DNA of 64,000 bases from an uncultured bacterium (GCA_965603125.1 CBFDBU010000010.1:8734-72733); one strand, 5' to 3'; positions 932 through 57,745 are shown, numbered from the stretch's first letter. Notes: generated by a model not told the origin, from the sequence alone. Translations and numbers: made by a program.

Positions 932-3136
932 CTATTGTTTTTCCCGCATCGATAAGCCAATACGACCTCGCTCAAGGTCCACGCTGAGCACCGTCACCTC
1001 CACCTTCTGGCGGACCTTGACGATCTCACCCGGATCCTTGACGAAGGCGTCGGCCAGTTCGCTGATATGCACTAACCCGTCCTGATGGACACCGATATCG
1101 ACAAAGGCGCCAAAGGCAGTGACGTTGGTGATGATTCCGGGAAGCTTCATCCCGGCCTTCACGTCTTCGATACACGTCACCGACTCGTCGAAGGCAAAGG
1201 TCTCGAACTGCGACCGCGGATCGCGCCCCGGCCGGGCCAGTTCGTCCATGATATCCTGAAGCGTCGGCAGTCCCACGGTATCAGAAACATAGTTTTCTAA
1301 CCTCACCCGTTCCCGCAGCTTTTCATCCTGCATCAGGAGCCCGACCGTGCAGCCGAGATCAGACGCCATGGCGTTCACCACCGCGTAGCTTTCCGGGTGC
1401 ACACCGCTCTTATCGAGGGGATTGCTGCAATCGGCAAGGCGCAGGAATCCGGCGGCCTGTTCAAAGGCTTTGGGGCCAAGTCGCGGAACTTTCTTGAACA
1501 TATCCCGTGATTTGAACGGTCCCTGCCGATCGCGATAGGCTACGATGTTGCCGGCCAGTTGCCGACCGAGACCGGAAACATAGCTGAGCAACTCCCGGCT
1601 GGCGGTGTTCACTTCCACCCCGACGCTGTTGACACAACCCATCACGGAGTCATCGAGCGTCAGTTTCAAAGCGGTCTGGTCAACGTCGTGCTGGTACTGT
1701 CCCACACCGATGGACTTGGGGTCGATCTTCACCAACTCGGCCAGCGGGTCCATCAGGCGTCGGCCGATCGAGACCGCGCCGCGAACGGTTATATCATGGT
1801 CGGGAAACTCCTCACGCGCCACGTCGGAGGCAGAGTACACGGACGCCCCTGCCTCGTCAACCATCACTACCTGAATATGCTCCGGCAGATCCAGCGTCTT
1901 GATGAAGACATCGGTCTCCCGACCGGCGGTGCCGTTGCCGATTGCGATCACGTTGACGCGGAATTTTTCGCACAGTGCTTTTAACGTAACGGCGGCGTCT
2001 TCACGCTCGGCGGCCCCGGCATGTGGTTGTATCGTGCAATGATGCTGGAGCGCTCCCTGCCGGTCAAGACAGACGACTTTGCAGCCGGTGCGAAAGCCGG
2101 GGTCGATTGCCAGCAAGCGCTTGCGGCCCAGCGGCGGGGACATCAGCAACTGGCGAAGGTTGTCGGCAAAAACCCGGATCGCCTCTGTATCGGCAGCCTT
2201 TTTTGTCTCAGCGCGCATCTCGGTTTCCATCGCCGGACCCAAGAGACGTCGGTAACTGTCATGAACGGCCAGACGAACCTGCTCTGAAGCCGGGTTGTCA
2301 CCGATGACAAAGATATCCTCCAGTATCGCCAGTGCCGTCTCTTCCTCTGGAGCAATTCGCAGCCTCAGAATGGACTCCGCCTCGCCGCGCCGCATGGCCA
2401 GAATGCGATGCGATGGCGCGTCCCTGGCAGACTCCTCCCAGTCGAAGTAGTCAGAGTAAGCAGCACCCTCGGTTTCCTTCCCGGGAGCTACTTTCGAGCA
2501 GATTGTTGCCTGCGCGGTGAACAACTCCCGCATCCGGGAGCGGGCGTCAGTGTCCTCGTTGATCCATTCGGCAACTATATCCCTCGCTCCCGCCAATGCT
2601 TCCTCGGCACTCGCCACACCCGTCTCGTCGTCGAGAAAAGCTTCGGCCTCGGATTGCGGTTCGATATCATCCTGAGTAAACAGCAACTCCGCCAGTGGCT
2701 CCAGACCGCGCTCGCAGGCGAGGGTGGCTCGAGTGCGGCGCTTGGGCCGGTACGGCAGGTAGATGTCCTCCAGCGCCGGCATGGTTTCAGCGCCGTTGAT
2801 TTCGCTGTGCAACTCGTCGGTAAGCAGCCCGCGTTCGTCGAGTGACTTCACAATCGCCTCGCGTCGCTTCTCCAGGTGTCGCAACCGGGCGATCCGGTCG
2901 CGGATGGCCGTGATGGCAACCTCATTGAGACTCCCCGTCGCTTCCTTACGATAGCGGGCAATAAACGGCACCGTCGCGTCGGCGTCGAGCAGCGCCACCG
3001 TGAACGCCACCTGCTCCTGCTTGAGTGTCAACTCTGTCGCTATTTTGGCGATCTGTTTCTCGTGCATTTGCTCCTCGATGTGCGGCATAATCACCGATCC
3101 GAACTTTCGCGACCAGGAGTTCTTTCCTCCTGACAT
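932..3136 (-). CDS. tex: Tex-like transcription accessory protein (YqgF/RuvC-like plus HhH plus C-terminal S1 domain)
   Basis: 734-aa ORF. The N-terminus has VPFIARYRKEATGSLNEV. The C-terminal S1 domain reads GMKLPGIITNVTAFGAFVDIGVHQDGLVHISELAD. The true start may be an internal Met (MPHIEE, at 3088). Confidence 0.9.
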   Translation of the reverse strand: MSGGKNSWSRKFGSVIMPHIEEQMHEKQIAKIATELTLKQEQVAFTVALLDADATVPFIARYRKEATGSLNEVAITAIRDRIARLRHLEKRREAIVKSLDERGLLTDELHSEINGAETMPALEDIYLPYRPKRRTRATLACERGLEPLAELLFTQDDIEPQSEAEAFLDDETGVASAEEALAGARDIVAEWINEDTDARSRMRELFTAQATICSKVAPGKETEGAAYSDYFDWEESARDAPSHRILAMRRGEAESILRLRIAPEEETALAILEDIFVIGDNPASEQVRLAVHDSYRRLLGPAMETEMRAETKKAADTEAIRVFADNLRQLLMSPPLGRKRLLAIDPGFRTGCKVVCLDRQGALQHHCTIQPHAGAAEREDAAVTLKALCEKFRVNVIAIGNGTAGRETDVFIKTLDLPEHIQVVMVDEAGASVYSASDVAREEFPDHDITVRGAVSIGRRLMDPLAELVKIDPKSIGVGQYQHDVDQTALKLTLDDSVMGCVNSVGVEVNTASRELLSYVSGLGRQLAGNIVAYRDRQGPFKSRDMFKKVPRLGPKAFEQAAGFLRLADCSNPLDKSGVHPESYAVVNAMASDLGCTVGLLMQDEKLRERVRLENYVSDTVGLPTLQDIMDELARPGRDPRSQFETFAFDESVTCIEDVKAGMKLPGIITNVTAFGAFVDIGVHQDGLVHISELADAFVKDPGEIVKVRQKVEVTVLSVDLERGRIGLSMREKQ

Positions 3137-3262
3137 CCCCTAAGATACGAAGAACAGCCCGAATTCGGAACAGGAAAGGTGACAGAAAGAAGCTCTTGCC
3201 GGGCGGACGTGGAGCCTGTAGATTGTCGGTGAAGGCAAAGTGAATAGCAGAGAAGATACGAG

Positions 3263-3754
3263 ATGACAGATACGACGTTGCCGGAGTCGGCGATTGAGAT
3301 TGTTGAGTTTCAGCCGCGGTATGCCCGGTATTTCCGCGATCTCAATTATGAATGGCTCGAGGAGTATTTCGAAGTCGAGCTGTATGACAAAATCATCCTG
3401 AATGATCCCGAAAAGCATGTTATAAAGCAGGGCGGCTGCGTTCTTTTTGCGCTGACGAGGGGCGAGGTGGTAGGAACCTGCGCTCTTCTGAAACACACCG
3501 AAAGTAAGTACGAACTGGCCAAGATGGGAGTCACCAGGAAGTATCGTAGTCGCGGCATAGGTCGCCGTCTCACACAGACAGCCATCGACAAGGCCCGCAC
3601 CCTTGGAGCGAATACGCTGGTATTGGCGACCAGCAAGCTTCTTCCCGTGGCGAACCATCTATACGAGGACATGGGTTTCCTGCATGTCGATCTCTCTGTC
3701 ATCGGCCCGCTGCCATACAATCGCGAGACTATTGTCATGGCCATGAAGCTTTAA
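3263..3754 (+). CDS. GNAT family N-acetyltransferase
   Basis: 163 aa. The acetyl-CoA pocket motif is MGVTRKYRSRGIGRRLTQTAIDKARTLG (R-x-x-G-x-G), and the size is typical of the family. Confidence 0.8.
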   Translation: MTDTTLPESAIEIVEFQPRYARYFRDLNYEWLEEYFEVELYDKIILNDPEKHVIKQGGCVLFALTRGEVVGTCALLKHTESKYELAKMGVTRKYRSRGIGRRLTQTAIDKARTLGANTLVLATSKLLPVANHLYEDMGFLHVDLSVIGPLPYNRETIVMAMKL

Positions 3755-4084
3755 GGGGTTACCCCAAAACCTGGAACAGAATACATGACAGCAACTGCCT
3801 TCCGCTACGGGTCGTTTCCACTCCGTCATTCATGCTCTTCTGTTATCTCTGGCAGAAGCCAGTATCCAGTCCTCGAATCCAACCTGGATTCCTTGTCAAG
3901 CCCGGAATGACGAAGGTGTTCACGTGAGAGGCAGCCTCTCCCTGCCCAAAACAACGGTACTCCCTTCAGCCCTTCATAAGAGAAGTTTGAAACAACACCA
4001 GAATATTCCGATACGAACACCACCGGTCGCAGTGTTGACCGGCAGGATTCAAAAATACCTGGTTTATTTGAAAAACTTACTCCA

Positions 4085-5311
4085 TTAACCACCGCAACCG
4101 CTACTGAGAGTGACCGCTTGTGTTGATTCAGCCTTCAAATCCTGTTTCTTTTCCTTGATTGGTTTAGATACTGGATTCTTGGGGTCTGATGTATATCCCA
4201 GAAAGCCACCCTTAATGGATTTAACATTCTTGTATTTGAGACGTTCCACCAGGCTTTCACCGGCCAAAGCAGCACGTCCACCTTTTTTACAATAAAGGAT
4301 GATGTCTTTATCTTTATCCTCAACAGTATTCAGGATTTTGAACTCAAGTAGACCACGAGGAATGCTAATAGCGTTAGGGATATAACCTTCTCCATATTCA
4401 GCTTCTTGTCTTACATCAATTAATACGAAATCTTTTCCCTCTTTTACCATTGCTTTGTAATCATCTACAGAGATCTCTGTTATTCTTTTCTTCGCTTCCG
4501 CGACCATGGCCTTAACTTTGGGGGTGGGAATAGCGGCAGCTTCCGACCATGCTTTCCAGCCACCTGCAATTGACTTCACGTTATTATATTTAAGACGTTT
4601 AAGTCTTTCAGCAGCTAAAGCAGCACGCCCGCCGTTTTTACAATATAGTATGATATTTGCATCTTTGTTGGGATATTTTTTTGTGATCTCGAATTCAAGC
4701 AAGCCACGGGGAATATTGACAGAACCAACGACATTACCGGCTTTGAATTCTTGGGGCTCACGAACATCAATCAAAACGAATTTTGCTTTCTTTGCCATCA
4801 GTGTTTTTAAGTCTGCGGGCGTGATTTCCGTTAGCGTCGCCTTCGAAGCTTTGACCATCCGTATAACTTCTTCGGGCATCTGTTGTTTTTCAGGTACCGG
4901 AGCAGCTTCAACCCATGCCTTCCAGCCACCGGCTATGGATCTGACATTATTATACTTAAGTTGACCCAAGGCTCTGGTAGCTAAAGAGGCACGTCCACCG
5001 TTTTTGCAATAGAGAACGATATTGCTATTTCTGTCCGCATACTTCTCGGTGATTTTAAACTCCAGTAAACCACGAGGAATATTAGTAGCGCCCGGAATAT
5101 GGCCGGCTGAATATTCCCCTGCTGTGCGGACGTCAATCAGTACATACTCCTCCTTCCCCATTACGTTTGCAAAGTCATCGACTGAAATCTCAGTTATTTT
5201 GGTTCTGGTCGCCTCTACCAATTGCCCAGCATTATCAAACTGACCTTCACAACCGGAAACCAAAACAAGTACTGCGAACAGTAATACAAAATTAATAATA
5301 ACTTTTTTCAT
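4085..5311 (-). CDS. lipoprotein with three tandem rhodanese domains and a C-terminal ...SSGCGG tail
   Basis: The start is taken at MKKVIINFVLLFAVLVLVSGC (lipobox LVSGC, Cys21), giving 408 aa. Three rhodanese modules each carry an active-site loop: CKNGGR (C102), CKNGGR (C224) and CKKGGR (C341). The 34-aa K/P/S-rich tail ends AVTLSSGCGG-stop. Confidence 0.8.
   Translation of the reverse strand: MKKVIINFVLLFAVLVLVSGCEGQFDNAGQLVEATRTKITEISVDDFANVMGKEEYVLIDVRTAGEYSAGHIPGATNIPRGLLEFKITEKYADRNSNIVLYCKNGGRASLATRALGQLKYNNVRSIAGGWKAWVEAAPVPEKQQMPEEVIRMVKASKATLTEITPADLKTLMAKKAKFVLIDVREPQEFKAGNVVGSVNIPRGLLEFEITKKYPNKDANIILYCKNGGRAALAAERLKRLKYNNVKSIAGGWKAWSEAAAIPTPKVKAMVAEAKKRITEISVDDYKAMVKEGKDFVLIDVRQEAEYGEGYIPNAISIPRGLLEFKILNTVEDKDKDIILYCKKGGRAALAGESLVERLKYKNVKSIKGGFLGYTSDPKNPVSKPIKEKKQDLKAESTQAVTLSSGCGG
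4190..5197 (-). repeat. three-fold tandem repeat of a ~97-aa rhodanese module (period ~118-121 aa, ~360 nt)
   Basis: The modules span aa 39-135, 160-256 and 278-374. They share ITEI(S/T)..D...LIDVR...E(Y/F)..G...(G/N)..NIPRGLLEF.I......D..I(V/I)LYCK.GGRA......L..LKY.NV.SI.GG. The similarity is also visible at DNA level. Confidence 0.8.
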
Positions 5312-5409
5312 TGCTTTTTCCTTTCTTCTTTTAAAAGAGACAAACGCCGACTGCCGGCAAAACTTCTCCATGTAAATGACATTATTTGGTTAAGCATCAA
5401 GAACTCAAA

Positions 5410-6621
5410 CTAATATGCACTAAACTTCCCGGTTTTTTCATTCCATTTAACAAAGAGATACCATATTAACAAAATCGCCAATACAAGGACGACCGACCAT
5501 ATATAGCCGATATAGTCAGGCATAAAGTTTCTAAAACGTGTAGAATGAGGTAAAAGCTTAACAAATCCCGGTTCAATATAATTCTTTGTTATGGGAGAAA
5601 TGAGTAAAAATCCAAGGGCGGCTGCCCATAATTTAATCTGTCCTTCTCCGAATCTCCATAGTGTTCCGACTGCGCAACCACCCGCTATTGTCATGCCAAG
5701 ACCAAAAATGAATCCGCCGATTGGAGCCCTCAGCCAGAAATTAGGAAATACCCATGTCAACTCTCTGTAACGTAAGGATAGATCACCTGCTCCAACTCCG
5801 AATTGTTTTATCAGTGTAAACCCTATAAGTCCGATCAATAGACCAGCTATTATACCGACTGTGCTGGATGATTTTCCGGTCATAAAAGGATCGCGGAATG
5901 ATGCCACAATGCAGAATCTTGAGCGTTGGCAAATCATTCCCAGCAAAAGACCAATAATTACAAACCAGGCCATTATCTTATTTGTTCCGGAATAGTTGTA
6001 CGCTATAACAAACACCATAATGGTCACAATAAGGCCCAGCCATTTCTGCCAAGCCCCCTTACCCTCAGAAGCAGCTAAAAGTGTCTTACTTTTACCTGAA
6101 CTGATACCGGGTAAGTGTTCCATTTCCCACATGAGGTATTTTAGGGCCACTAATGTACCTAAAAACAGACCTACCGTTAATAATATTGCTCCCCCTGAAA
6201 GAGCAGGCACTCCACTAAAAAATCCACCAATAGTGCATCCGATACCTAATATAGCCCCGATCGCCATTAAACCCCCGCCGATAAATCCTTTAATTAACTC
6301 TCCAACAGGTGGAATTCTCAGGGCAAACTCCTTTGCCAAAAGAGCACCTACAAAAGCTCCGAGAATAATCAGAATATTCAACATTCCATATAAGCTGTCA
6401 CTTATTGAGGTAACATTTTCTATTCCCAATACTCCCAGTGCCTGATACAGATTTTCTCCCCAATTATTATAGCCACCACTACCGCCCCATGGGCTCTTAA
6501 TCATAAAGAGAAACACATTAAGCAACCCCAGCAAAATTCCTCCAACCCAGACAGGCCAATGTTTTGAGAAAAATGTACGAAAGAGTTGGCTTAATGCAGA
6601 TTTGTTTGATTCTTGTTCCAT
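5410..6621 (-). CDS. YeeE/YedE-family inner-membrane sulfur (thiosulfate) transporter
   Basis: 403 aa and polytopic. It has the three conserved Cys contexts of the family: GIGCTIGGF, MICQRSRFCIV and IAGGCAVGTLW. A TusA-like gene lies immediately upstream in the same operon. Confidence 0.8.
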   Translation of the reverse strand: MEQESNKSALSQLFRTFFSKHWPVWVGGILLGLLNVFLFMIKSPWGGSGGYNNWGENLYQALGVLGIENVTSISDSLYGMLNILIILGAFVGALLAKEFALRIPPVGELIKGFIGGGLMAIGAILGIGCTIGGFFSGVPALSGGAILLTVGLFLGTLVALKYLMWEMEHLPGISSGKSKTLLAASEGKGAWQKWLGLIVTIMVFVIAYNYSGTNKIMAWFVIIGLLLGMICQRSRFCIVASFRDPFMTGKSSSTVGIIAGLLIGLIGFTLIKQFGVGAGDLSLRYRELTWVFPNFWLRAPIGGFIFGLGMTIAGGCAVGTLWRFGEGQIKLWAAALGFLLISPITKNYIEPGFVKLLPHSTRFRNFMPDYIGYIWSVVLVLAILLIWYLFVKWNEKTGKFSAY

Positions 6622-6637
6622 AATAATCTATCCTCTC

Positions 6638-6874
6638 TCACTTCTTCTTGATTACAAAGCGAAAAACACCCCCTTCTAATTCACTCTCATCAAGAAGAGT
6701 ATTCCCTGTCTTCCCGCACCATGAATGCAAATCTGTTTTTGTTCCGGGGTCTGTACCCAACATTTCAAGCACCTGCTCTGATTTGAGCCCCTTCATTGCT
6801 TTTGACAATTTCATAATTGGCATGGGACAGGTGAGACCTTTTACATCCAAAGTTACGTCAATTTTTGTTTCCAT
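6638..6874 (-). CDS. TusA/SirA-like sulfurtransferase (YeeD-type partner of YeeE)
   Basis: 78 aa with the LDVKGLTCPMPIMKLSKAMKGL (CPxP) motif. AAGGAGAAATGAG precedes the ATG. Confidence 0.8.
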   Translation of the reverse strand: METKIDVTLDVKGLTCPMPIMKLSKAMKGLKSEQVLEMLGTDPGTKTDLHSWCGKTGNTLLDESELEGGVFRFVIKKK

Positions 6875-7114
6875 CTCATTTCTCCTTTTGTTGAGTGGTG
6901 AACAGTCAGTTGCTATAAATCATGTCCTCTTTTAAGGGAATTATTGAAATTTTCGGAGAAAAAACAATAAAATGCCCTTTGAAGCAAGTAGATTTTTTAT
7001 CAAATCACAGGTAGAATTGCCTCAAATTAAGTGTTAGCGAAGAGTGATGGATTTGATCTGGGAATTGTCACATGGCCTCATATTCAGTGTTTCCGGATGG
7101 AGACAAGAATATAA

Positions 7115-7198
7115 TGCCGAAGGGGGGACTCGAACCCCCACTCCCTTGCGAGAACTGCGCCCTGAACGCAGCGTGTCTACCGATTTCACCACTTCGGC
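7115..7198 (-). tRNA. tRNA-Leu (anticodon CAG)
   Basis: The reverse complement is GCCGAAGTGGTGAAATCGGTAGACACGCTGCGTTCAGGGCGCAGTTCTCGCAAGGGAGTGGGGGTTCGAGTCCCCCCTTCGGCA. The 7-bp acceptor stem is GCCGAAG/CTTCGGC. The anticodon stem is CTGCG/CGCAG with loop TTCAGGG. It has a long variable arm, a T-arm GGGGG-TTCGAGT-CCCCC, and is 84 nt long. Confidence 0.9.
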
Positions 7199-7368
7199 AT
7201 CAGCGTCCCAAGCCGTTAGACGACCGGTCCCGGAGACCTCCGCCAATATACCAGTATCCCTCAGATACGCAACATGAATTCCGGTCAGCATACGCATTTG
7301 CTTGATTCCCGGGATTGTACGCCGTAACTTGCTGCAACCTGAAACAGCACCGTAGCTTGAGTCTGCCC

Positions 7369-9042
7369 ATGCCTGTCAGATCACTGCAATGGATTCGCGT
7401 CCGCCTCGGCTCCCACAAAACCCAGGGCAGGTACCTCCGCTTCGCGGCCATACTTCTGCCTTTCTGCGCCTACCTGTTCCTGGCCACAGGCCTTTCCGAC
7501 TGGATTATTGACGACGCCGGCATCACCTTCTCATACTCGCGCTCTCTTAGCCAGGGGCATGGGCTCGTGTCTCAACCGGGCATGGAACCCGTGGAAGGGT
7601 ATTCCAATCCTCTGTGGATGCTGACTATGGTCCCCTTCTTCTTGGGCGGTATCTTTCATCCCTACATCGTTCCCAAACTGATCAGCTATGTCCTGGTGGC
7701 ATTGACATTCTGGCTGCTTCATCGGCTCGTTTCAAGATTGACGGGCGATTTCCTGCCGGCCACATTCGCAGCACTCTCGTTGTTGTCGGTGAATTCCTCT
7801 TTCGTGATATGGACCTGCTCGGGCCTGGAGAACCCCCTGTACGCAGCTCTGATCGTTGGCTTGACGTATCTGCATGTTGAATGGGCTGCCGGCAGCTGTT
7901 CCTGTGAGCACGCCCCGATCATGTCGGCCCTGCTGGCTTGCGCCATCGCCATGACGCGACCGGACGGCGTCGTTTACGCCACCCTCTTCCCCCTTGCGCT
8001 GGTGATTGGATTCAGACCAGGCGGGAACCGCTCAAGGCGTATGCTGCTCCGGGGTCTCGCAGTGTATGTATCCACGTTTGTCGTGGTATTTGGAGCATTC
8101 ATCTTGTTTCGATACCTCTATTTCCACGAATTGCACCCGAATACTTACTACGTCAAGGGGGGGCCTACTCTCGATATTGCTGTGCAGGCGCTAACTCTGC
8201 AGGGAGGATACTTGAACAAGTCCTACCTCCTGGTTCACAGTATACTGGGGCCGGTATTCTGGTGGCTGATCCCCATCGGCTGCATCGTGCTCCTAGTGAG
8301 CGCACTTTACCGCGTAGCGCGATGGCGAGAGTCAGTCGTTCTAACTGCTGGCACGCTCCTGACCGCATACGTCTTCCTGATCCTGAGCGAAGACTGGATG
8401 GGGGAGTATCGTTTCGCGACACCATTCTTCCCGCTGGCGTGTTGTTGTCTGGTTGTCTTTGTCCATGTTGTCCTCACCGCCATTGTTCGCGGCAAAGCGC
8501 GTCTCCTGGGTATCGGCTCAGCAGTCTTTGTGACACTGCTGATCTTAAGTGTTGACCTGCATTATCCGCGCATTCAGCACTACGTGAGATCGAAGCCGGT
8601 ATCCTTCGAACGCATAGCCAACCGATTCGGAAAGCGGTTCAACGATTACGCGGCTTTCCTCCAGGTACCGGATGCTTCCTTCCTGGTGCCGGATATGGGC
8701 GGCACCTTGTACTACTCAAAACTGCGTATCCATGACCTGGCCGGGCTGTGTGACAAGACCATTGCCCGTACCAGGGGCAGAGACCAGCAGCGTTTTTACG
8801 ATCATGTCTTCAAGGAACTCAAGCCGACATTTATCCATACGCACGGGTATTTCACAGCGGTTTCGAAATTCGACGACGACCCCCGTTTTTCCAGCGACTA
8901 CGTATCAATCAACGAGTATGTCGACAAGCACGTCGAGACCAGGTATGGCGAAACCCGAATCTCGGGGGATTTCGTAAGGAAAGATATCGCCGCCGACAAA
9001 GAGGCTCAACTTGATTCACTTCGCCAGGGACTGGCCCCATGA
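7369..9042 (+). CDS. polytopic GT-C-type membrane glycosyltransferase (family not resolved)
   Basis: Many TM segments. The first loop motif is IIDDAGITFSYSRSL..GHGL....EPVEGYSNPLWML. It is a paralogue of 9109..11235. The start is taken at ATG 7369; the ORF track begins at a TTG at 7315. Confidence 0.55.
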   Translation: MPVRSLQWIRVRLGSHKTQGRYLRFAAILLPFCAYLFLATGLSDWIIDDAGITFSYSRSLSQGHGLVSQPGMEPVEGYSNPLWMLTMVPFFLGGIFHPYIVPKLISYVLVALTFWLLHRLVSRLTGDFLPATFAALSLLSVNSSFVIWTCSGLENPLYAALIVGLTYLHVEWAAGSCSCEHAPIMSALLACAIAMTRPDGVVYATLFPLALVIGFRPGGNRSRRMLLRGLAVYVSTFVVVFGAFILFRYLYFHELHPNTYYVKGGPTLDIAVQALTLQGGYLNKSYLLVHSILGPVFWWLIPIGCIVLLVSALYRVARWRESVVLTAGTLLTAYVFLILSEDWMGEYRFATPFFPLACCCLVVFVHVVLTAIVRGKARLLGIGSAVFVTLLILSVDLHYPRIQHYVRSKPVSFERIANRFGKRFNDYAAFLQVPDASFLVPDMGGTLYYSKLRIHDLAGLCDKTIARTRGRDQQRFYDHVFKELKPTFIHTHGYFTAVSKFDDDPRFSSDYVSINEYVDKHVETRYGETRISGDFVRKDIAADKEAQLDSLRQGLAP

Positions 9043-12440: not shown

Positions 12441-13937
12441 TCAGGGCCTGATAACCTTCCTGGCTATTGTTCCATCAGGCTCCTGGACTATCAGCGGAAT
12501 GCGCCGCGCTTGGCGCAGTTCGTTGGCTACCTTTTCTATATCTTCAAGTGACTTCACCGGCGCGTCGTCAACCTGGAGGATGATCGTGCCACGGTTTATC
12601 GATGCGAATTCGGCCTTCGTTCCCGGGTAAACCCGTCTCACATAAACGCCTCCGACATACTCTAAACCGACCGCGCGGGCAATCTCGGGAGTGAACGTGA
12701 GAAGTTCCATGCCGGCCCAAACGCTGACCTGGAAATCGTCAGGCCCAGCGTCGGTCTCAGCCAGCGACGCGAGAAAAGCATCACGATCAGTCACTATTGT
12801 ATGCAGCATGACCGTCTCCCCGTCGCGCACAACCTCCACCGGCATCGTGGCTTCATCACGATTGGCAGTCGAGACCAGCACCGAGAGTTGTCCGGCATTA
12901 TCGACCGGCTGGTTGTTAAACGAGACAATTACATCACCTGCCAGCACTCCCGCCTTCTCCGCCGGTGATTCGGCAAAAACGGAGTCAACCGTGACCCCCT
13001 TCACGGCATCGAGACCCTGCCGCTTGGCTTCCCGCTGCGTGACGTCATGAAACCACACGCCAAACCAGCCGCGGCTGGCCTTACCGGTGGCAATCAGGTC
13101 CGGCACAACAGCCCGCGCCAAAGTGATCGGGATGGCAAACCCGATACCGACCGATCCCCCCGTCGGGCTTGAGATTGCCGCGTTGACACCGATCGCCTGG
13201 CCGCGAAGATTCAACAGCGGCCCGCCGGAGTTCCCCGGATTGATCGAGGCGTCGGTCTGAATGTAGTTCTGGTAATCCGGGGTCTCACGTCCGAAACGCA
13301 GGTTGCTGCGCCCCACGGCGGATATCACTCCCACTGTAACCGTTCGATCCAGACCCTGCTGGGGAAACGGGTTGCCGATGGCTATCGCCCAGTCACCCAC
13401 CTTGATATCGTCCGAGTCGCCGAACGGGATCACCGTAACCTCTTCCTCCGGCTCAACCTTGAGAACCGCCAGGTCGGTCTGCGGATCCGCTCCGACCAGC
13501 CTGGCGTCATACTGGTAGCCGGAGGCGGTGCTCACTGTCAGCTCCACAGCATCGCGAACGACGTGATTGTTGGTCAAAATGTAGCCGTCCTCACGAAAGA
13601 AAAACCCCGAGCCGGACGACGTGGCGTAATTCGGCCCCCGATACCACCAGGGCACACGCTCCTCCCTTGATCGGGCGGAGATATTGACCACGGCGTCCTG
13701 CACATTCTCGACCACCGCCACGAACGGCGATTCCAACTCGCCGTCATGATCGACCAGCGGATAAAGCCCGGCACCGGAAACCGGCGCCACCGGCCCCGAG
13801 ATGGCCCCGTCGGCAAACCGCAGATGTGGTGCGATCAGTACCCCGCAAAGGGTGAAGACAAAGGCCACGATACCGAGACTAAAGAACCGTGGCCGCTTCT
13901 TGCGCTTCGATGTCTGAGGAAGAAGGCGCTGCTCCAA
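12441..13937 (-). CDS. htrA: periplasmic HtrA/DegP/DegQ-family serine protease with two PDZ domains
   Basis: 498 aa with an N-terminal TM/signal segment. Catalytic contexts are ILTNNHVV, DLAVLKV and GNSGGPLLN, followed by two PDZ-like segments. Confidence 0.85.
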   Translation of the reverse strand: MEQRLLPQTSKRKKRPRFFSLGIVAFVFTLCGVLIAPHLRFADGAISGPVAPVSGAGLYPLVDHDGELESPFVAVVENVQDAVVNISARSREERVPWWYRGPNYATSSGSGFFFREDGYILTNNHVVRDAVELTVSTASGYQYDARLVGADPQTDLAVLKVEPEEEVTVIPFGDSDDIKVGDWAIAIGNPFPQQGLDRTVTVGVISAVGRSNLRFGRETPDYQNYIQTDASINPGNSGGPLLNLRGQAIGVNAAISSPTGGSVGIGFAIPITLARAVVPDLIATGKASRGWFGVWFHDVTQREAKRQGLDAVKGVTVDSVFAESPAEKAGVLAGDVIVSFNNQPVDNAGQLSVLVSTANRDEATMPVEVVRDGETVMLHTIVTDRDAFLASLAETDAGPDDFQVSVWAGMELLTFTPEIARAVGLEYVGGVYVRRVYPGTKAEFASINRGTIILQVDDAPVKSLEDIEKVANELRQARRIPLIVQEPDGTIARKVIRP

Positions 13938-19535: not shown

Positions 19536-20434
19536 CACCGGCGCGACTTCGTTGGGGCACGCTGATGGTCACTTTCGGTCTGTTGTTGCTCCTGAGGAAC
19601 TTAGGCACTCTCAGCGACGATTTCTGGGTGGATCTGCTGATATATTTCCCCATAGTGCTGATCCTCATTGGTATTGAGAAGATATTTACCAAGTCCCGGC
19701 TTCAGTTTATATCGTATTTCACATCGTTTCTACTGCTCGTAGGTGGGATCGGCATAGCTTTCTACAGTAGTTGGAACGACCATGAAGGAAGTTTCTTCTC
19801 CCAGACCAGCCACCGGGTTGATTTCGATCCTGAAGTGAAGAAGCTCTCAGCCGTCCTGAAGCTCGGCGAGACCGACCTGACCATTCGCGACAGCGGGGAT
19901 GATCTCGTGTTCGGGCAGTTTGACCGTTTCACTCAGAAACCCCGCATATCCTACTCTGTCGAGCAGCAGGAAGCGAAATTAGTATATACTGCCCGTCGTG
20001 GCGGGCGCCTCGGAGGCGCGATCACGATCAATACCGGCGAAGACCAGGACTGGTACATCCAGTTCTCCGACCGCGTGCCGCTCGATCTCGAATGCTATAG
20101 TGAGGATTCCGATATTCATCTGAACCTGTCCACGACACCGTTGAAAAGGCTGAAACTGAACACCGATGACGCCCATATATATCTCAAGTTGGGTAAGATG
20201 GAACCGGTGGTTACGGTTGTCGTCCTGGGCGACCAATCCGATCTCAAGTTGCGGATGCCGGAAAGCGTCGGGCTCCGTATGAGTGATAACGACTACCGTT
20301 CGTACCTGACCAAGGTTGGTCTGATAGAGACTGAAGACGGCACCTTTGTCACTAAGGGTATCGACACCCTGATCACAACGATTGAACTGGACCTAGACGA
20401 GCACCTGTCTTCCTTTTCTGTGGACCGTTTCTAG
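19532..20434 (+). CDS. LiaF/DUF2154-like membrane protein, with its 3' end replaced by an IS630 insertion
   Basis: Its ATGA overlap with pspC suggests translational coupling. The N-terminal TM pair is GTLMVTFGLLLLLRNLG..., followed by a beta-rich C-domain. The present stop TAG (20432-20434) is built from the target TA plus the first base of the IS. Confidence 0.5.
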   Translation: MTPARLRWGTLMVTFGLLLLLRNLGTLSDDFWVDLLIYFPIVLILIGIEKIFTKSRLQFISYFTSFLLLVGGIGIAFYSSWNDHEGSFFSQTSHRVDFDPEVKKLSAVLKLGETDLTIRDSGDDLVFGQFDRFTQKPRISYSVEQQEAKLVYTARRGGRLGGAITINTGEDQDWYIQFSDRVPLDLECYSEDSDIHLNLSTTPLKRLKLNTDDAHIYLKLGKMEPVVTVVVLGDQSDLKLRMPESVGLRMSDNDYRSYLTKVGLIETEDGTFVTKGIDTLITTIELDLDEHLSSFSVDRF

Positions 20435-21519
20435 TGTTCTGAGTTGGAAGTTTGTGTACAAAAACGTCCCACGGCGTCGATGATGTCGTCGGCGCACTTG
20501 GTCCAGACGAATGCTTGGGGATGGTTGTTGTTATGTTCCACGTAGTCTCTAATGGCATGTTCGAGTTGGCGGGTGCTGTGGTGGCTCCCACGCCGCAGTT
20601 GCTTGCGCGTGAGGATCGAGAACCAGCTCTCCACGAGGTTGAGCCACGATGCACCGGTGGGGGTGAAGTGAAGATGAAAGCGCCGATGTCGGGCGAGCCA
20701 ACGGTGGATCGACAGCGTTTTGTGTGTTCCGTAGTTGTCCGGGACGAGATGGACATCGAAGGGGGCGGGGACCTGCTTGTCAACAAGGGAAAGGAATTTC
20801 TTGAACTCGATGGCGCGATGTCGTCGAAAGCACTTTTCGATTACCTTTCCGGACTGGATGTCGAGGGCAGCGAAAAGGGAGGTCGTCCCGTGTCGGCGAC
20901 AGTCGTGTGTGCGACGCTCGGGAACACCGGGACCCATGGGGAGGATCGGCTGCGCGCGATCCAGGACTTGGATTTGGGATTTCTCGTCGAGGCACAGTAC
21001 CAAGGCTCGATCCGGTGGGTTCATGTAAAGCCCAACGATGTCACGAACCTTATCGACGAAGAGCGGATCCCCGGAAAGCTTGAAGGTCTCGGTACGATGG
21101 GGCTGCAGCGCGAATGCTCGCCAGATTCGGCTGACCGCCGTCTGGCTCAGGCCACTGGTTCGGGCCATTGAGCGGGTGCTCCAGTGCGTCGCACCCGGTG
21201 GCGGATGTTCAAGAGTCATCGTAATCACTCGTTCCACATCCGCCTCGGTAATCCGTCTCGGAGCGCCTGGCCGGGGTTCGTCGAGAAGACCATCAAGGCG
21301 ACGATCTAAAAACCGCTGCCGCCACTTGCCAACCGTCTGTTTGGTCATGTCCATCTTGACGGCCACCTCGGTGTTGCTCATGCCCGAGGCGCTCGCAAGG
21401 ATGAGGCGCGCGCGCTGGGCCAGCGCATGGGCGGTCTTGCGCCGACGAACCCATTGTTGGAGTCGCTGACGTTCCGGGGGGCTCAAGTGCAGAGGTCGAA
21501 GGCGAGGTCCTTTACGCAT
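20431..21519 (-). CDS. IS630-family (Tc1/mariner-like DDE) transposase, intact
   Basis: 362 aa. The N-terminal HTH region reads LSPPERQRLQQWVRRRKTAHALAQRARLILASASGMSNTEVA and KQTVGKWRQRFLDRRLDGLLDEPRPGAPR. The DDE core contexts are LCLDEKSQIQVLD and VPDNYGTHK. Confidence 0.9.
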   Translation of the reverse strand: MRKGPRLRPLHLSPPERQRLQQWVRRRKTAHALAQRARLILASASGMSNTEVAVKMDMTKQTVGKWRQRFLDRRLDGLLDEPRPGAPRRITEADVERVITMTLEHPPPGATHWSTRSMARTSGLSQTAVSRIWRAFALQPHRTETFKLSGDPLFVDKVRDIVGLYMNPPDRALVLCLDEKSQIQVLDRAQPILPMGPGVPERRTHDCRRHGTTSLFAALDIQSGKVIEKCFRRHRAIEFKKFLSLVDKQVPAPFDVHLVPDNYGTHKTLSIHRWLARHRRFHLHFTPTGASWLNLVESWFSILTRKQLRRGSHHSTRQLEHAIRDYVEHNNNHPQAFVWTKCADDIIDAVGRFCTQTSNSEH

Positions 21520-29758: not shown

Positions 29759-30433
29759 TTGTATGTATCGAAAGCAGAATCGGTTGTATCAAAAATGTGT
29801 CCAAGCGAACCAAAAAGCAAACCGCTGATCGGCATCGGGTCCGGAATCGGTGAGGCTCTGTTTCCCAAGATTCGCAGAAAGGTTCTTGCGCTGTTTCTGC
29901 TTAATCCCGAAAAGCACTTTTATTTCAGGGAAACGGTTAGACTGCTGGGGGATACACCCGGTTCGCTTCTGCGCGAACTCAAATCGTTGACGGAAGCTGG
30001 GATCCTCACTATGGAGCCGATCGGCATCCAAAAGTTCTATCGGGCGAACACTGAAAGTCCCGTATTCAGCGAGTTGAGATCAATTGCCGAGAAGACATTC
30101 GGAGTAGCTGATGTATTCCGCGACGTTCTCCGCACTCAGGGAAAGGAACAAATCGACGTCGCCTGCATCTATGGTTCAATTGCCAGTGGTCACGATACTA
30201 GCTCCAGCGACATTGATCTGATGGTAATCGGCTCATTGCCGTTTCGTGAACTGGTGTCCATTCTGAAGCCGATTGAAGAGAACATGCAGCGACCGGTGAA
30301 TCCAACGCTTTATTCGATTGTTGAGTTTAAGACCAAAGTGCGCCAAAAGAACAATTTCCTTCACAATGTAATGGAATCTGAAAAACTGTTCATATTGGGG
30401 ACCAAGGATGACCTTGCAAGACTGGCTGAATAA
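29759..30433 (+). CDS. winged-HTH plus minimal nucleotidyltransferase (MNT-type) protein
   Basis: The wHTH segment is RRKVLALFLLNPEKHFYFRETVRLLGDTPGSLLRELKSLTEAGIL. The pol-beta NTase motif is IYGSIASGHDTSSSDIDLMVIG (G-S-x(n)-D-x-D). The start is uncertain (29759 or MCPSE at 29795). Confidence 0.7.
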   Translation: MYVSKAESVVSKMCPSEPKSKPLIGIGSGIGEALFPKIRRKVLALFLLNPEKHFYFRETVRLLGDTPGSLLRELKSLTEAGILTMEPIGIQKFYRANTESPVFSELRSIAEKTFGVADVFRDVLRTQGKEQIDVACIYGSIASGHDTSSSDIDLMVIGSLPFRELVSILKPIEENMQRPVNPTLYSIVEFKTKVRQKNNFLHNVMESEKLFILGTKDDLARLAE

Positions 30434-30842
30434 CGGTTGGCTTAAACGACATACCTCGAGCCCGCAGGAAATCAAAGACTTGCTTGACAAGGTCGATCGG
30501 GATATTGCTGAGGCTGCAAAAGAAGAGATCACGCTCGACTGGAGATTGGCGATAGCTTACAATGCCTGTCTCGGCTGTGCGACAATTGCTCTGCGAGCGA
30601 GCGGCTATCGAATGCCAGGAGGCACAGGCCGGCACTATCGAACGATTCAATCATTGAGATTCACTATTAATCCAGATTCCGACATTATCATATCGCTGGA
30701 AGCGACCAGCAAGAAGAGAGCTACGGTCAGTTACGATGCCGCCGGAAGGGTGACTGAGGCCGAGGTTGAAGAAGCACGGAGGCTCGCCGAAGATATTCTT
30801 GAGCTTCTTCAGCGATGGCTGGATGAGCGTCTTTCGACTTAA
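30408..30842 (+). CDS. HEPN-like helical partner of the nucleotidyltransferase (putative toxin of an MNT/HEPN pair)
   Basis: 144 aa with a 26-nt overlap with the NTase gene. The segment SPQEIKDLLDKVDRDIAEA....LDWRLAIAYNACLGCATIALRASGYR....GRHYRTIQSL resembles HEPN-type four-helix proteins. I could not see a canonical R-x4-6-H motif. Confidence 0.4.
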   Translation: MTLQDWLNNGWLKRHTSSPQEIKDLLDKVDRDIAEAAKEEITLDWRLAIAYNACLGCATIALRASGYRMPGGTGRHYRTIQSLRFTINPDSDIIISLEATSKKRATVSYDAAGRVTEAEVEEARRLAEDILELLQRWLDERLST

Positions 30843-30863
30843 CCCCCTTATAGCGGATTACCT

Positions 30864-31481
30864 ATGAAACTCTCGTTCTGGTGTGAGGGTGAAAACATAA
30901 GCATTGCTTTTCGGGAAGTCCGACTCAAGTTCGAAGATGTGGTTTACCAAAATGTGTTTATCTGCAAGAACAATAGGACCGTAGCGCAAACAATCCTGCA
31001 CAAGCGCTATCAGAATCTGGCGTCGCGTGCGAAGCAGGATTACTCTCAAGCGCTACAGATACCAATAGGAACCTTCCTTTTGAACTTGAAGAATCAAGGC
31101 GATGCCTTCTACAAAGAATTTCTGAATGACTGCGGCGACCTCGTGTATTGTAGGTTTTGCATAGCTGACGAGGAACGGCGAAAGAAGCGGGGTATTTACA
31201 TTTATACCGTCGGTAAAGAAATCCGGTATGTAGGCCGGTGTTTGAATTCGTTTGAAAGGCGGATCAACAACGGACATGGACGTATTTCACCCAAAAGCTG
31301 CTTTATCGATGGTCAGAAGACAGATTGCCACCTGAACAACCTTGCGCTAAAGAACAAGGACAAATTGCAGTTGTTCGCTGCCGTAATTAAAGATGCGGAG
31401 CGAATTAAGAAACTCGAACGCTGCATGATAAGAGAGTGTAACCCACTCTGGAATATCGCCCTTAGGCGCGGAAAGAACTGA
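30864..31481 (+). CDS. GIY-YIG-like nuclease domain protein
   Basis: 205 aa. The C-terminal half reads KKRGIYIYTVGKEIRYVGRCLNSFERRINNGHG...KLERCMIRECNPLWNI. That gives GIY...YVG spacing, a conserved Arg, and later Glu and Asn. The N-terminal ~100 aa are unassigned. Confidence 0.5.
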   Translation: MKLSFWCEGENISIAFREVRLKFEDVVYQNVFICKNNRTVAQTILHKRYQNLASRAKQDYSQALQIPIGTFLLNLKNQGDAFYKEFLNDCGDLVYCRFCIADEERRKKRGIYIYTVGKEIRYVGRCLNSFERRINNGHGRISPKSCFIDGQKTDCHLNNLALKNKDKLQLFAAVIKDAERIKKLERCMIRECNPLWNIALRRGKN

Positions 31482-32154: not shown

Positions 32155-32274
32155 TTGTGACTTCTTTCTCCGGGCTTGGCATAATAGCAGGATCGCGCGG
32201 ATCCTGCCGTTCTATTTGGCAGGCTTACCGGGATGCTGCCTATGAACGATGCCGCGCCGGGGCGGCGATCTATA

Positions 32275-32347
32275 AGCGGGAGACGGGGTTCGAACCCGCG
32301 ACCAACAGCTTGGAAGGCTGTGACTCTGCCACCTGAGTTACTCCCGC
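32275..32347 (-). tRNA. tRNA-Gly (anticodon TCC)
   Basis: The reverse complement is GCGGGAGTAACTCAGGTGGCAGAGTCACAGCCTTCCAAGCTGTTGGTCGCGGGTTCGAACCCCGTCTCCCGCT. The acceptor stem is GCGGGAG/CTCCCGC. The anticodon stem is ACAGC/GCTGT with loop CTTCCAA, and the T-loop is TTCGAAC. It is 73 nt with discriminator U. Confidence 0.9.
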
Positions 32348-32517
32348 TTGCGGTTGACAAGCTATCCTTGATGGCCCGCGTTGGCAAGCGCTTTTTGCTG
32401 CGTCCTGGCTGATGTGGGCGTCGGTCACAGGCAGCCACGCGTAATATCAGGACCGGTTGCTTGTAACGAAAGCAGTCACGAGAACCGGCGCGCAACACCT
32501 GTTTCCCAAAGAATCGG

Positions 32518-32568: not shown

Positions 32569-32742
32569 ATGCGAACTTACGAATCCGTCTTAGACGTGAT
32601 CGGCCGCACACCGCTCCTGAGACTAAGGACCGGCTTTCCGCCGGACGACCCCAGAGCCTACGTGAAGGTCGAGTTTCTCAACCCGACCGGGTCGGTAAAA
32701 ACGCTGATGGCCTTGACTTTGGATTCGGATAGCGTATATTGA
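32569..32742 (+). pseudogene. 5' fragment (57 codons) of a cysteine synthase / PLP-dependent CysK-CysM family gene
   Basis: My translation is MRTYESVLDVIGRTPLLRLRTGFPPDDPRAYVKVEFLNPTGSVKTLMALTLDSDSVY-stop. It matches the family N-terminus (IG.TPL..L......KLE..NP.GSVK with the PLP lysine) and then stops. The remaining ~250 aa are absent. Confidence 0.55.
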
Positions 32743-53000: not shown

Positions 53001-53702
53001 CTATGCCTCGGTTGACAGAGTTTCCTGGCATTTAATTGTTTTCCGCAACACCTCGTACGGTGATTTCCCTTTCAGAGCCCCGTGGGGTCGGTGGTGATTG
53101 TAGTAGCGCTCCCTCTGGTCGAGTTTGGCGTTAAGATCGACATCGCCCCCATACGATAGTAGTTGATAGAATTCAACTTCATCAGTGCCAGGTGAACGTT
53201 CTACCTTGCCATTTAGCCTCGGCGTTCGAGGTTTGATGTAAACATGCCGGATGCCCAAGTCGGCCAGGTGCCAGTGGAACTTGGCCTGAAACTCGTGGCC
53301 GTTATCCGTACGCACAGTATGTATCCGAAAGGGGAACTTGACAATCACATAGTTCATGAACTTGATGGCGTTCTCCTGAGTGTGGCGCCGGTAAACCTTG
53401 AGGGCGCGAACCTGAGTGGCATCGTCAATGGCAGTATATTGAAAGCGGCGAATCTTTCTGCCGGCCATGTCGCGGAATCGCAGAAACTTCACGTCGACTT
53501 GGATATGATGCCCCGGGACCTGCTTCTCGTACCGGTGAGTTTGCACCGTGCGTCTCTTGGCGTTTCTGAGCAGGCGGTTCATACCGTTACGCTTGAGAAC
53601 TCCATAAACCCCGCCTGTGGAAACCTTGATCCCGTGATAGCGCTCCAGAAACCAAGAAATGCGCAACTGGCCAAGATGATAGGTTTTGCGCAGGTGACAA
53701 TA
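53001..53702 (-). pseudogene. 5'-truncated IS481-family (rve/DDE integrase) transposase
   Basis: The ORF 53001..53666 has no ATG start (a TTG codon). The frame stays open upstream (YCHLRKTYHLGQ-LRISWFLERYHGIKVSTGGVYGVLKRNGMNRL) until it runs into tRNA-Gln. The core is present (HIQVDVKFL, YTAIDDATQ, VRTDNGHEF, PRTPRLNGKVER, YYNHHRPHGAL), but the N-terminal HTH (roughly 80-100 aa in full-length relatives) is missing. Confidence 0.7.
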
Positions 53703-53704
53703 AG

Positions 53705-53775
53705 CTGGGAGACAGGGATTCGAACCCCGATTCCACGGTCCAGAGCCGTGTGCCCTACCATTGGACTATCTCCCA
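53705..53775 (-). tRNA. tRNA-Gln (anticodon CTG)
   Basis: The reverse complement is TGGGAGATAGTCCAATGGTAGGGCACACGGCTCTGGACCGTGGAATCGGGGTTCGAATCCCTGTCTCCCAG. The acceptor stem is TGGGAGA/TCTCCCA. The anticodon stem is CACGG/CCGTG with loop CTCTGGA, and the T-loop is TTCGAAT. It is 71 nt. Confidence 0.85.
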
Positions 53776-57400: not shown

Positions 57401-57745
57401 GATTCAGTCGATAGAGATAATGACCCTTCGGTATCAGGCTCTCCAACGGCGGGAGGAGCGTCATTCCCTCCCGATATTGCTCTCGTCTTGTTGGCATAAC
57501 CACAATCAACACTATTCAACGCTGACCTAAACAACTTTTTCAACAAGCCCAAAAGCGGGAATGACCTAGAGGCTCAGAGATGACCTGTAATGGAAGGCGG
57601 TTGCTGTCTTGCATTCTGTCCCGAGCTTTTCAACAGCTTGGTAGTGCTTTTTGTGCATCCCCAGTGCTGTTTCTGGTTGCTCTGCCGTCCACATGGCGGA
57701 TATATTAGATCAATAGATTCGATCAGCCGTTCAAGGACGGGAAAG

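Follow-up and report, generated by a model that had tools for sequence, protein, structure and literature searches.

A low-GC tusA, yedE-type and rhodanese cassette beside tRNA-Leu(CAG) in an uncultured bacterium: probable horizontal acquisition and a proposed sulfur relay

How did three genes for sulfur-handling proteins come to lie in DNA of low guanine-plus-cytosine content (GC) next to a leucine tRNA gene, and what could they do for the cell that carries them? The questions are raised by a 64,000-nucleotide stretch from an uncultured bacterium (GCA_965603125.1 CBFDBU010000010.1:8734-72733; hereafter, the window). A preliminary description had placed a low-GC island between a GNAT gene and the 3' end of tRNA-Leu(CAG), and had read its minus-strand tusA-like, yeeE/yedE-like and rhodanese lipoprotein genes as a horizontally acquired thiosulfate or sulfane-sulfur acquisition module. 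Pfam confirms the three genes where they had been drawn. We propose that positions 4085-6963 are a self-contained cassette of tusA, a yedE-type gene and a triple-rhodanese lipoprotein gene, that a bacterium of 56% GC acquired it from a low-GC carrier, and that it landed in the variable region directly 3' of tRNA-Leu(CAG), where its products may relay sulfur into the cell. Taken as a whole, acquired cassette and proposed relay together, this is likely to be the best explanation of the locus. Its features are as follows.

3755-4084, spacer from the GNAT stop codon to the rhodanese stop codon; GC 0.49; homology to other cassettes ends at 4085/4078
4085-5311, minus strand, triple-rhodanese protein, predicted lipoprotein, 408 amino acids; three Pfam Rhodanese stretches, E = 3.7e-66 (open reading frame [ORF] 4085-5371)
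5410-6621, minus strand, YedE-type transporter of the YeeE/YedE family, 403 amino acids; Pfam Sulf_transp PF04143, E = 3.7e-50
6638-6874, minus strand, TusA-family sulfur carrier, 78 amino acids; Pfam TusA, E = 4e-23
6875-6963, minus strand, tusA upstream region in common with the cassette of another locus (L091); AAGGAG ribosome-binding site and, probably, the promoter
6964-7113, AT-rich spacer between the tRNA 3' end and the shared cassette; GC 0.356; particular to this lineage
7115-7198, minus strand, tRNA-Leu(CAG), native to the host lineage; Rfam RF00005, 53.8 bits; ARAGORN 7114-7199

A compositional block that ends at a tRNA gene

GC drops from about 0.56 to 0.41 over a block that begins at the rhodanese stop codon (4085) and has its right-hand limit at 7115, where tRNA-Leu(CAG) has its 3' end. 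The sharp drop described earlier is apparent at every scale. Windows of 400 nucleotides (nt) have a GC of 0.36-0.47 over about 3900-7100, as against 0.51-0.63 on either side. In 2-kb windows, the trough is the deepest of the 64 kb (0.405; mean of the window, 0.559). At the 3-kb scale, the minimum (0.413) is found from 4101 onward; outside the region, windows of this size are at 0.566 ± 0.020 and go no lower than 0.501. The cassette itself has a GC of 0.41-0.43. GC at third codon positions (GC3) is 0.423 (TusA), 0.367 (transporter) and 0.380 (rhodanese), compared with 0.675 ± 0.061 for 37 other ORFs (z = -4.1, -5.0 and -4.8, respectively). Furthermore, the three genes are the least likely of all under background synonymous-codon usage (z = +3.0 to +5.4). 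The GC and codon-usage analysis suggested in the preliminary description thus finds a significant deviation, and because it lies at synonymous sites, amino-acid composition does not explain the trough.

The true low-GC block is 4085-7113, and 3755-4084 is to be left out. Of the extent first assigned to the island, from the GNAT gene to 7115, the right limit at the tRNA 3' end therefore stands and the leftmost part does not. Segment 3755-4084 looks host-like, with a GC of 0.49, no counterpart in other copies of the cassette, and a motif that recurs elsewhere in the 64 kb; probably it is a junction or host DNA, outside the shared cassette. The motif, of about 48 nt (GGAACAGAATrCAwGACAGCAACyGCCTTCC...), occurs twice in the window, at 3766-3813, directly after the GNAT stop codon, and at 57582-57630, between queG and an NlpC/P60 gene. 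The copies are in opposite orientation with 82% identity, and may represent a small intergenic repeat or regulatory element. An ORF at 3826-4092 (minus strand) was rejected as a gene: it has no Pfam match, overlaps the rhodanese stop codon and is called in one of ten assemblies.

On the tRNA side, segment 6964-7113 matches only contigs of the same species, at 100%, and blastn homology to other cassettes ends at 6963 (against L091) or 6892 (against L113). In an alignment of tusA upstream regions, the AAGGAG ribosome-binding site is the only conserved element; a possible FNR-like half-site upstream of tusA falls outside the conserved part. Promoter and terminator scans gave matches at chance level only, and the tRNA was the only match in a scan with Rfam.

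Could the block be an artefact that joins two organisms, by assembly or by binning? The assemblies are metagenomic, and the abrupt shift in composition falls at a tRNA gene, a conserved sequence where mis-joins can occur. Nonetheless, the exact transporter protein occurs in ENA, JGI and Logan assemblies, on 21 contigs, with a single gene order in all: a 557-amino-acid membrane protein (p557), tRNA-Leu, TusA, transporter, rhodanese, GNAT, Tex. This arrangement is identical in at least 10 independent ENA, JGI and Logan assemblies, and the junction segments 6964-7113 and 3755-4084 are both 100% identical in 10 of them. We regard the probability of a chimera as negligible. The host is probably a Zixibacterium without a close sequenced representative, to judge from the labels that depositors have given to proteins of metagenome-assembled genomes (MAGs). 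Homologs of p557 bear mostly the names Zixibacteria or Zixiibacteriota, and the top match to Tex in a collection of species-representative genomes is a Zixiibacteriota MAG, at only 68% identity. A search of genome contigs with Tex found no close relatives, only distant matches of at most 69% identity.

The cassette in other genomes and the flank of tRNA-Leu(CAG)

Where else does the cassette occur? Against L091, whose transporter is 92% identical, blastn homology (84.9% identity) runs from 6963 to exactly the rhodanese stop codon at 4085, with none beyond. Against L113 (transporter 90% identical), it covers 6892-4078 at 80.2% identity; the L091 and L113 cassettes are 81.6% identical to each other as DNA. 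Carriers share DNA homology in the three genes only, and have unrelated flanks. The site differs in each carrier (L091, L093, L094, L113 and the window): the cassette lies between an AI-2E transporter gene and a cupin gene in L091, after a Porin_O_P gene in L093 and L094, and between PTS-EIIA and a gene of unknown function in L113. In L091 (GC 0.50), a tRNA-Lys(CTT) gene follows the cassette at a distance of 750 nt downstream, and a tRNA-Sec gene lies 8.5 kb upstream of it (1108-1203, 13301-13375).

The composition of the cassette relative to its host also differs between carriers.

L095-L098 (members of the transporter group named Bacteroidales or Bacteroidota): host flanks GC 0.33-0.39; cassette GC3 equal to flank GC3
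L113 (named Zixibacteria): flanks GC 0.43-0.46, GC3 0.36-0.45; cassette GC3 0.31-0.36
Window: host GC3 about 0.68; cassette GC3 0.37-0.42
L091: host flanks GC3 0.59-0.68; cassette GC3 0.36-0.39
L093 and L094 (hosts GC 0.61-0.64): flanks GC3 0.78-0.87; cassette GC3 0.58-0.69

Low-GC hosts thus have a native-like cassette, whereas those of the window and of L091 are foreign and those of L093 and L094 intermediate. This gradient fits transfer out of a low-GC source with later amelioration. Transporters that accompany a fused triple rhodanese (the window, L091, a Zixibacteria-named cluster, L093 and L094) are monophyletic in a neighbour-joining tree of 119 transporter homologs, and their clade is nested within sequences that, where they are named, are called Bacteroidales or Bacteroidota and nothing else. 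With a Bacteroidales cluster the transporter shares 79% identity, whereas no Bacteroidota Tex is more than 65% identical to the housekeeping protein Tex of the window. By these protein comparisons, the cassette is better conserved across phyla than a housekeeping gene. The nearest host relative that we found, L099, has sigma, p610 and p557 proteins that are 98%, 91% and 83% identical to those of the window; upstream of p557 it has OmpA-family and DUF4412-like genes, and neither the tRNA nor the cassette. L101 (p557 55% identical) has rpsT upstream of p557. In tblastx comparisons, there were no housekeeping orthologs common to the window and other cassette-bearing loci.

An alternative explanation for the trough is that the genes are ancient residents, with a low GC that is intrinsic to the operon because of its membrane protein, its lysine-rich rhodanese or selection on expression. 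In each higher-GC genome examined (the window, L091, L093 and L094), cassette GC is 8-15 points under that of the flanks, as a constant offset would have it, and no mobility genes are present. However, cassette GC3 equals that of the flanks in the low-GC hosts L095-L098 and L113, hence there is no intrinsic offset, and in the window it is synonymous third positions that show the deficit (z of -4 to -5). Moreover, the site differs in every carrier, the nearest host relative has other genes here and no cassette, and the gene tree places the cassette within another phylum. Long residence is thus very unlikely.

Horizontal acquisition of the three-gene cassette is, by contrast, very probable, as the preliminary description had proposed: the relatives found lack the three genes at this site, and carriers have them at unrelated sites. 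A low-GC Zixibacterium is the most likely proximal donor. The most economical history would begin with a deeper origin in Bacteroidales, continue with residence in low-GC Zixibacteria, and end with lateral spread to higher-GC lineages, including the host of the window. The search for a donor lineage, recommended earlier, thus has a partial answer: the cassette is native-like in the low-GC, Zixibacteria-named L113 and deeper in Bacteroidales/Bacteroidota.

What of the claim that the cassette was inserted on the 3' side of the tRNA? The 48-nt 3' half of tRNA-Leu is found at 11 metagenome loci; the adjoining 3' sequence is different in each, and the cassette is in none of them. In L104, a tyrosine integrase gene (1492-2604; Phage_integrase, E = 1e-30) begins 97 nt past tRNA-Leu (2701-2748). 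L107 has a low-GC segment with a ParE-like toxin gene (1-1594) 3' of tRNA-Leu(CAG). In L106, L111 and L112, an ortholog (53-55%) of a GDSL lipase lies 3' of the tRNA; the lipase gene of the window organism is about 7 kb further out, past the cassette, GNAT, Tex and a histidine phosphatase gene. L108 shares the 5' synteny (HtrA, sigma) and has a different 3' neighbour. Short fragments resembling an integrase C-terminus lie directly 5' of the tRNA in L105 (E = 9e-12) and, as weaker matches, in L102, L106 and L112. The 3' flank of tRNA-Leu is a variable hotspot in relatives, and the cassette occupies the tRNA-proximal end of a repeatedly remodelled region.

Like tRNA-associated genomic islands, the block abuts a tRNA 3' end and has an atypical composition, and the same tRNA locus holds an integrase gene in one relative. 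The cassette is absent from L099 and from the 11 loci with the same tRNA 3' half, where the flanks are rearranged as well. Unlike such islands, the block has no integrase gene, flanking direct repeat or mobility gene, and is only 3 kb long with three cargo genes. As an island, it is an ordinary small acquisition in a tRNA-adjacent hotspot, and of a known kind.

Several observations weigh against this account of how the cassette arrived. No integrase gene, transposase gene or integrase remnant flanks the cassette, and tblastn with the L104 integrase gives no match in 3000-7400. The last 22 nt of the tRNA are not repeated anywhere in the 64-kb window with up to three mismatches, and the best partial matches of 14-22 nt to the tRNA 3' end in 3600-4400 are those expected from shuffled sequence. 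The two negatives of the preliminary description, no integrase and no clear direct repeat, thus hold, and the partial tRNA-Leu copy that it had suggested seeking in 3755-4084 does not rise above shuffle expectation. There is no strict empty site, with GNAT directly adjoining tRNA-Leu, among the relatives found, and the region is rearranged in them too. Furthermore, copies with 15-20% DNA divergence keep an equally low GC in two higher-GC hosts, which requires separate, fairly recent transfers from unsampled low-GC donors, or a constraint on composition. Lastly, the taxonomy of the host depends on depositors' names for MAG proteins. Of the tRNA-side insertion, then, the abutment and the variable flank are observed, and an integrase or attachment-site repeat is not; integrase-mediated insertion is plausible, and no trace in the sequence attests to it.

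Other parts of the window also look foreign. A second, milder low-GC patch (29759-31481; gene GC 0.46-0.51, GC3 0.53-0.56) lies 3' of tRNA-Gly(TCC) (32274-32348, minus strand). It contains a gene for a Pol-beta-type nucleotidyltransferase (224 amino acids) and two ORFs without a family match, and this small segment may have been acquired too. At 32626-32697, tblastn gives a very weak integrase-like match (E = 6). An ORF with an rve/rve_3 integrase core (IS3-type transposase; 53001-53666, minus strand) is 38 nt from the 3' end of tRNA-Gln(CTG) (53704-53775). All three tRNA genes in the window thus have foreign-looking DNA on their 3' side. A DDE_3 (IS630-like) transposase gene with helix-turn-helix domains (20431-21519, minus strand), 13 kb from the cassette, indicates that mobile elements are present in this genome. 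Three consecutive giant ORFs (34663-39114, 39354-46421 and 46583-51880, minus strand; 1483, 2355 and 1765 amino acids) are host-like in composition.

The carrier, the transporter and the rhodanese

The TusA-family protein has a C-P-x-P sulfur-binding motif at Cys16 (LTCPMPIM), and aligns over its full length with E. coli TusA/YhhP; the alignments to this protein and to Ta1170 run through the Cys motif. Its score against the NCBIfam TusA model, 54.5 bits, does not reach the cut-off of 78. The tusA gene is 16 nt upstream of the transporter gene.

The transporter matches PF04143 in two stretches (171.7 bits; cut-off, 27). Its residues C237, C316 and C129, in the motifs QRSRFC(237), AGGC(316)AVG and GIGC(129)TIG, are invariant in 50 homologs, and align with C22, C91 and C293 of the Spirochaeta thermophila YeeE (StYeeE), where all three are essential. 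An AlphaFold2 model (predicted local distance difference test, 78; predicted template-modelling [TM] score, 0.79) was used in a Foldseek search of PDB; the top five matches are all YeeE structures (probability 1.0, TM 0.48-0.58), and no other structures match with high probability. Relative to TsuA/YeeE, the two halves are in reverse order: residues 221-346 correspond to 6-121 of StYeeE, and 79-158 to 242-322. The Foldseek alignment is unable to settle the order, the fold being pseudo-symmetric. A new circular permutation was considered and rejected, since the protein is colinear with the NCBIfam YedE/FdhT model NF033796 (17-397 against 2-382 of 387, E = 1.5e-38), and since its half order is the one that published work infers for PmpA/PmpB (PMC11582611).

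By these sequence criteria, the transporter is a YedE-type member of the family that belongs to neither characterised equivalog. It scores 132.9 bits against NF033796, where the cut-off is 350, and reaches neither TsuA model (NF052577, 104.6 against 400; NF041049, 76.5 against 645); these shortfalls count against the import function proposed below. The pair resembles TsuA(YeeE)-TsuB(YeeD) of E. coli and S. thermophila (PDB 6LEO, 8J4C, 8K1R) in its PF04143 protein with three essential or invariant cysteines, its adjacent TusA-like CPxP protein, and the fold match of the transporter model at probability 1.0. It differs in that the transporter is about 50-75 residues longer with its halves reversed and fails the TsuA equivalog models, in that tusA precedes the transporter gene, and in that a periplasmic triple-rhodanese lipoprotein is a third, obligatorily linked component. 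The thiosulfate-type YeeE pair of the preliminary description therefore survives as a PF04143 transporter with a TusA partner, and not as a TsuA. Because the transporter is YedE-type, rather than of the TsuA/YeeE type with demonstrated thiosulfate uptake, thiosulfate is only one candidate substrate.

Is the substrate selenium rather than sulfur? The best full-length NCBIfam match of the transporter is named "selenium metabolism membrane protein YedE/FdhT", and YedE/FdhT-YedF, of proposed function in selenium metabolism, is likewise a protein of about 400 amino acids, with a colinear full-length match, and an adjacent TusA-like small protein. A YedE/YedF-like uptake pair with a periplasmic rhodanese could mobilise selenite or selenide for selenoprotein or selenouridine synthesis; TusA weakly matches YedF, the rhodanese weakly matches the selenium-linked rhodanese models LYCAU, ExtH and MnmH, and the tRNA-Sec gene of L091 is 8.5 kb from the cassette. 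However, the scores are far under the curated cut-offs (33.5 against 79 for YedF PRK11018, as well as the NF033796 shortfall above), and selD, selA, selB and ybbB are near the cassette in none of nine contexts (the window and eight others). In the donor lineage, moreover, the neighbourhood is one of sulfur-trafficking partners, with DsrE, a second TusA and HdrA/QmoC-like proteins. A selenium cassette is thus unlikely.

The rhodanese starts at 5311 in the gene calls of most independent assemblies, and this start gives a canonical lipoprotein signal peptide. The lipobox LVSG-C21 (MKKVIINFVLLFAVLVLVSG-C21) fits the pattern [LVI][ASTVI][GAS]C, and from this motif the protein is predicted to be a lipoprotein, periplasmic and membrane-anchored. 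It has three six-residue active-site loops within LYCK(N/K)GGRA, namely CKNGGR, CKNGGR and CKKGGR at C102, C224 and C341, which align with the catalytic loops of the tandem rhodanese 6MXV, its PDB relative at E = 8e-41. The three domains are 48-57% identical as protein, and within 4536-5032, stretches of 59-65 nt around the catalytic loop are still 65-80% identical between domains as DNA. Each domain is orthologous to the domain in the same position in L091, L093 and L094; therefore, the triplication is older than the clade. A second PDB relative is Sud, the periplasmic polysulfide-sulfur transferase of Wolinella succinogenes (1QXN, E = 1.8e-11). Both are extracytoplasmic, with a rhodanese domain, a catalytic cysteine for the capture of sulfane sulfur and a membrane partner to which it would be delivered, but Sud has a single domain, is soluble and dimeric, and serves polysulfide reductase, whereas the protein here is a three-domain lipoprotein with a Cys-bearing tail and is linked to a transporter.

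The rhodanese lipoprotein of the preliminary description is thus borne out; a conserved C-terminal arm had gone unnoticed. Past the third domain, a flexible 30-residue linker rich in lysine, glutamate and proline leads to the end SSGCGG (C406, codon 4094-4096). The corresponding ends at other loci are as follows.

L091, L113: SSGCGG
L093: GGGCGG
L094: GGGGCGG
L095: DGGCGG, SSGCGG
L096: SGGCGG, GGGCGG
L097: EGGCGG
L098: EEGGCG, ESGGCG

The terminal Cys end is kept in every rhodanese examined that follows a transporter gene; three other rhodaneses at those loci do not have it. In the triple-rhodanese clade (nine clusters at 90% identity, 63-100% identical), the lipobox, the three catalytic loops and the terminal GCGG are present in 9/9, and the linker is variable. 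An invariant terminus after a variable linker argues for a functional terminal cysteine. Lipobox and tail are both missing from the next relatives of the clade (38-40% identical). Of 1.84 billion cluster representatives, the best 150 include seven in which an acidic linker leads to a terminal GC(G)(G) or close variant; they have one, two or three domains, and a lipobox in five of the seven. A full-text literature search found no paper that links GGCGG with rhodaneses or describes this end, and NCBIfam has no model for this rhodanese subfamily.

The arm recalls that of SoxY, the carboxy-terminal GGCGG of which has a cysteine that covalently carries the sulfur substrate (PMC6067878). In both proteins, an extreme C-terminal Gly-Cys-Gly-Gly is on a flexible segment of an extracytoplasmic sulfur-handling protein, and it has been proposed that YeeE-like SoxT transporters are offered the sulfur that SoxYZ binds (PMC6067878, PMC11582611). 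The body of the protein here is instead three rhodanese domains; no SoxY fold was detected in it, and no SoxZ gene is nearby. The resemblance spans only 4-5 residues, and sulfur loading of the terminal cysteine would be by analogy.

A proposed sulfur relay and its wider setting

What might the three proteins do together? Thiosulfate import by TsuA/YeeE depends on the TusA-like TsuB, which becomes persulfidated; YedE1E2/PmpAB takes up zero-valent sulfur, inward only, via essential cysteines; and SoxT1A has been proposed as a recipient of sulfur from SoxYZ (PMC11582611, PMC10812762). Periplasmic carriers, SoxYZ among them, have been put forward as the source of sulfur for YeeE-like transporters (PMC11582611). 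We propose that an anionic sulfur species crosses the outer membrane, and that the anchored periplasmic rhodanese takes the sulfane sulfur of thiosulfate or polysulfide onto its catalytic cysteines. The rhodanese would hand the sulfur to its own terminal Cys406, on the flexible SoxY-like GCGG arm, and the arm would present it to the YedE-type channel, the three invariant cysteines of which would relay it across the cytoplasmic membrane. Cys16 of the cytoplasmic TusA would then accept the sulfur as a persulfide for downstream use. Genes of the Porin_O_P (phosphate-selective-porin) family are beside or inside the cassette at three loci (L093 2665-3717, L094 8584-9654 and L096 12879-13676), which fits an anionic substrate that crosses the outer membrane.

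From homology, sulfur import to TusA in general terms is the function that we somewhat favour. A hand-off specifically from arm cysteine to channel cysteine to TusA, by cysteines throughout, is a more tentative suggestion. It is similarly tentative that the cassette is a previously undescribed three-component sulfane-sulfur system that works from cysteine to cysteine and moves as a unit between Bacteroidota and Zixibacteria. Two points weigh against the relay: no downstream acceptor genes (DsrE, Hdr/Qmo) were found in the 64-kb window, and we infer each of the substrate, the direction of transport and the role of Cys406.

The same lack of cytoplasmic acceptor genes would suit an outward or protective role, either export or detoxification of sulfane sulfur or sulfide in the order TusA, YedE, rhodanese, or detoxification of polysulfide or cyanide independently of the transporter. 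Sequence does not fix the direction of transport, and PspE and GlpE, rhodaneses to which that of the window is similar, have detoxification or stress roles. Nonetheless, the characterised relatives import, TsuA/YeeE with thiosulfate and YedE1E2 with zero-valent sulfur, inward only (PMC11582611, PMC10812762). The porin genes next to the cassette suggest that an external substrate enters, and a coupled system is what the tail motif and the strict linkage of the three genes point to. An outward or protective role is quite unlikely.

The import reading has a wider setting in the Bacteroidales-type loci, where a larger conserved cluster (L095 9755-18095, L096 9758-21218, L097 3398-11744, L098 9754-20023) encodes Crp/Fnr-family regulators, TusA, the YedE-type transporter and one or two tail-bearing rhodaneses, followed by a DsrE-like protein, a second TusA, MvhD/FlpD, two HdrA-like flavoproteins, a small protein and a QmoC-like membrane iron-sulfur protein (206 bits; qmoC cut-off, 300). 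The rhodaneses at these loci are encoded by separate one- or two-domain genes. The cluster looks like a quinone-linked sulfane-sulfur redox system; imported sulfur may pass onward to DsrE, the second TusA and the MvhD/HdrA-like/QmoC-like complex. We found no description of this larger TusA-YedE-rhodanese-DsrE-Hdr/Qmo-like cluster in the literature. A related published arrangement is the YTD cluster of sulfur reducers and disproportionators, which comprises a yedE-related gene, tusA, a dsrE-like gene (DsrEFH type II) and genes for 2-3 conserved proteins (PMC8528874, PMC13490349). The yedE-related and tusA core is common to both, and the Bacteroidales relatives add the DsrE-like and second TusA genes directly downstream. 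In contrast, the cassette of the window has neither the DsrE-like gene, which is found only in L095-L098, nor the conserved hypothetical genes, and its tail-bearing lipoprotein rhodaneses are outside the published YTD definition.

What would such a system mean for sulfur metabolism? The passage of reduced or zero-valent sulfur through the cytoplasmic membrane is a recognised gap in sulfur oxidation, reduction and disproportionation. We know of no dedicated transporter-linked sulfur carrier. A YedE-type/TusA pair that is obligatorily linked to tail-bearing lipoprotein rhodaneses, and is kept in Bacteroidales and Zixibacteria alike, appears to be an undescribed variant of the sulfur-import machinery, and, as a compact three-gene system, it offers a hand-off model that is testable through five or six cysteines. 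For the ecology of the host, the cassette suggests that sediment Zixibacteria widened their sulfur handling by gaining a ready-made import module.

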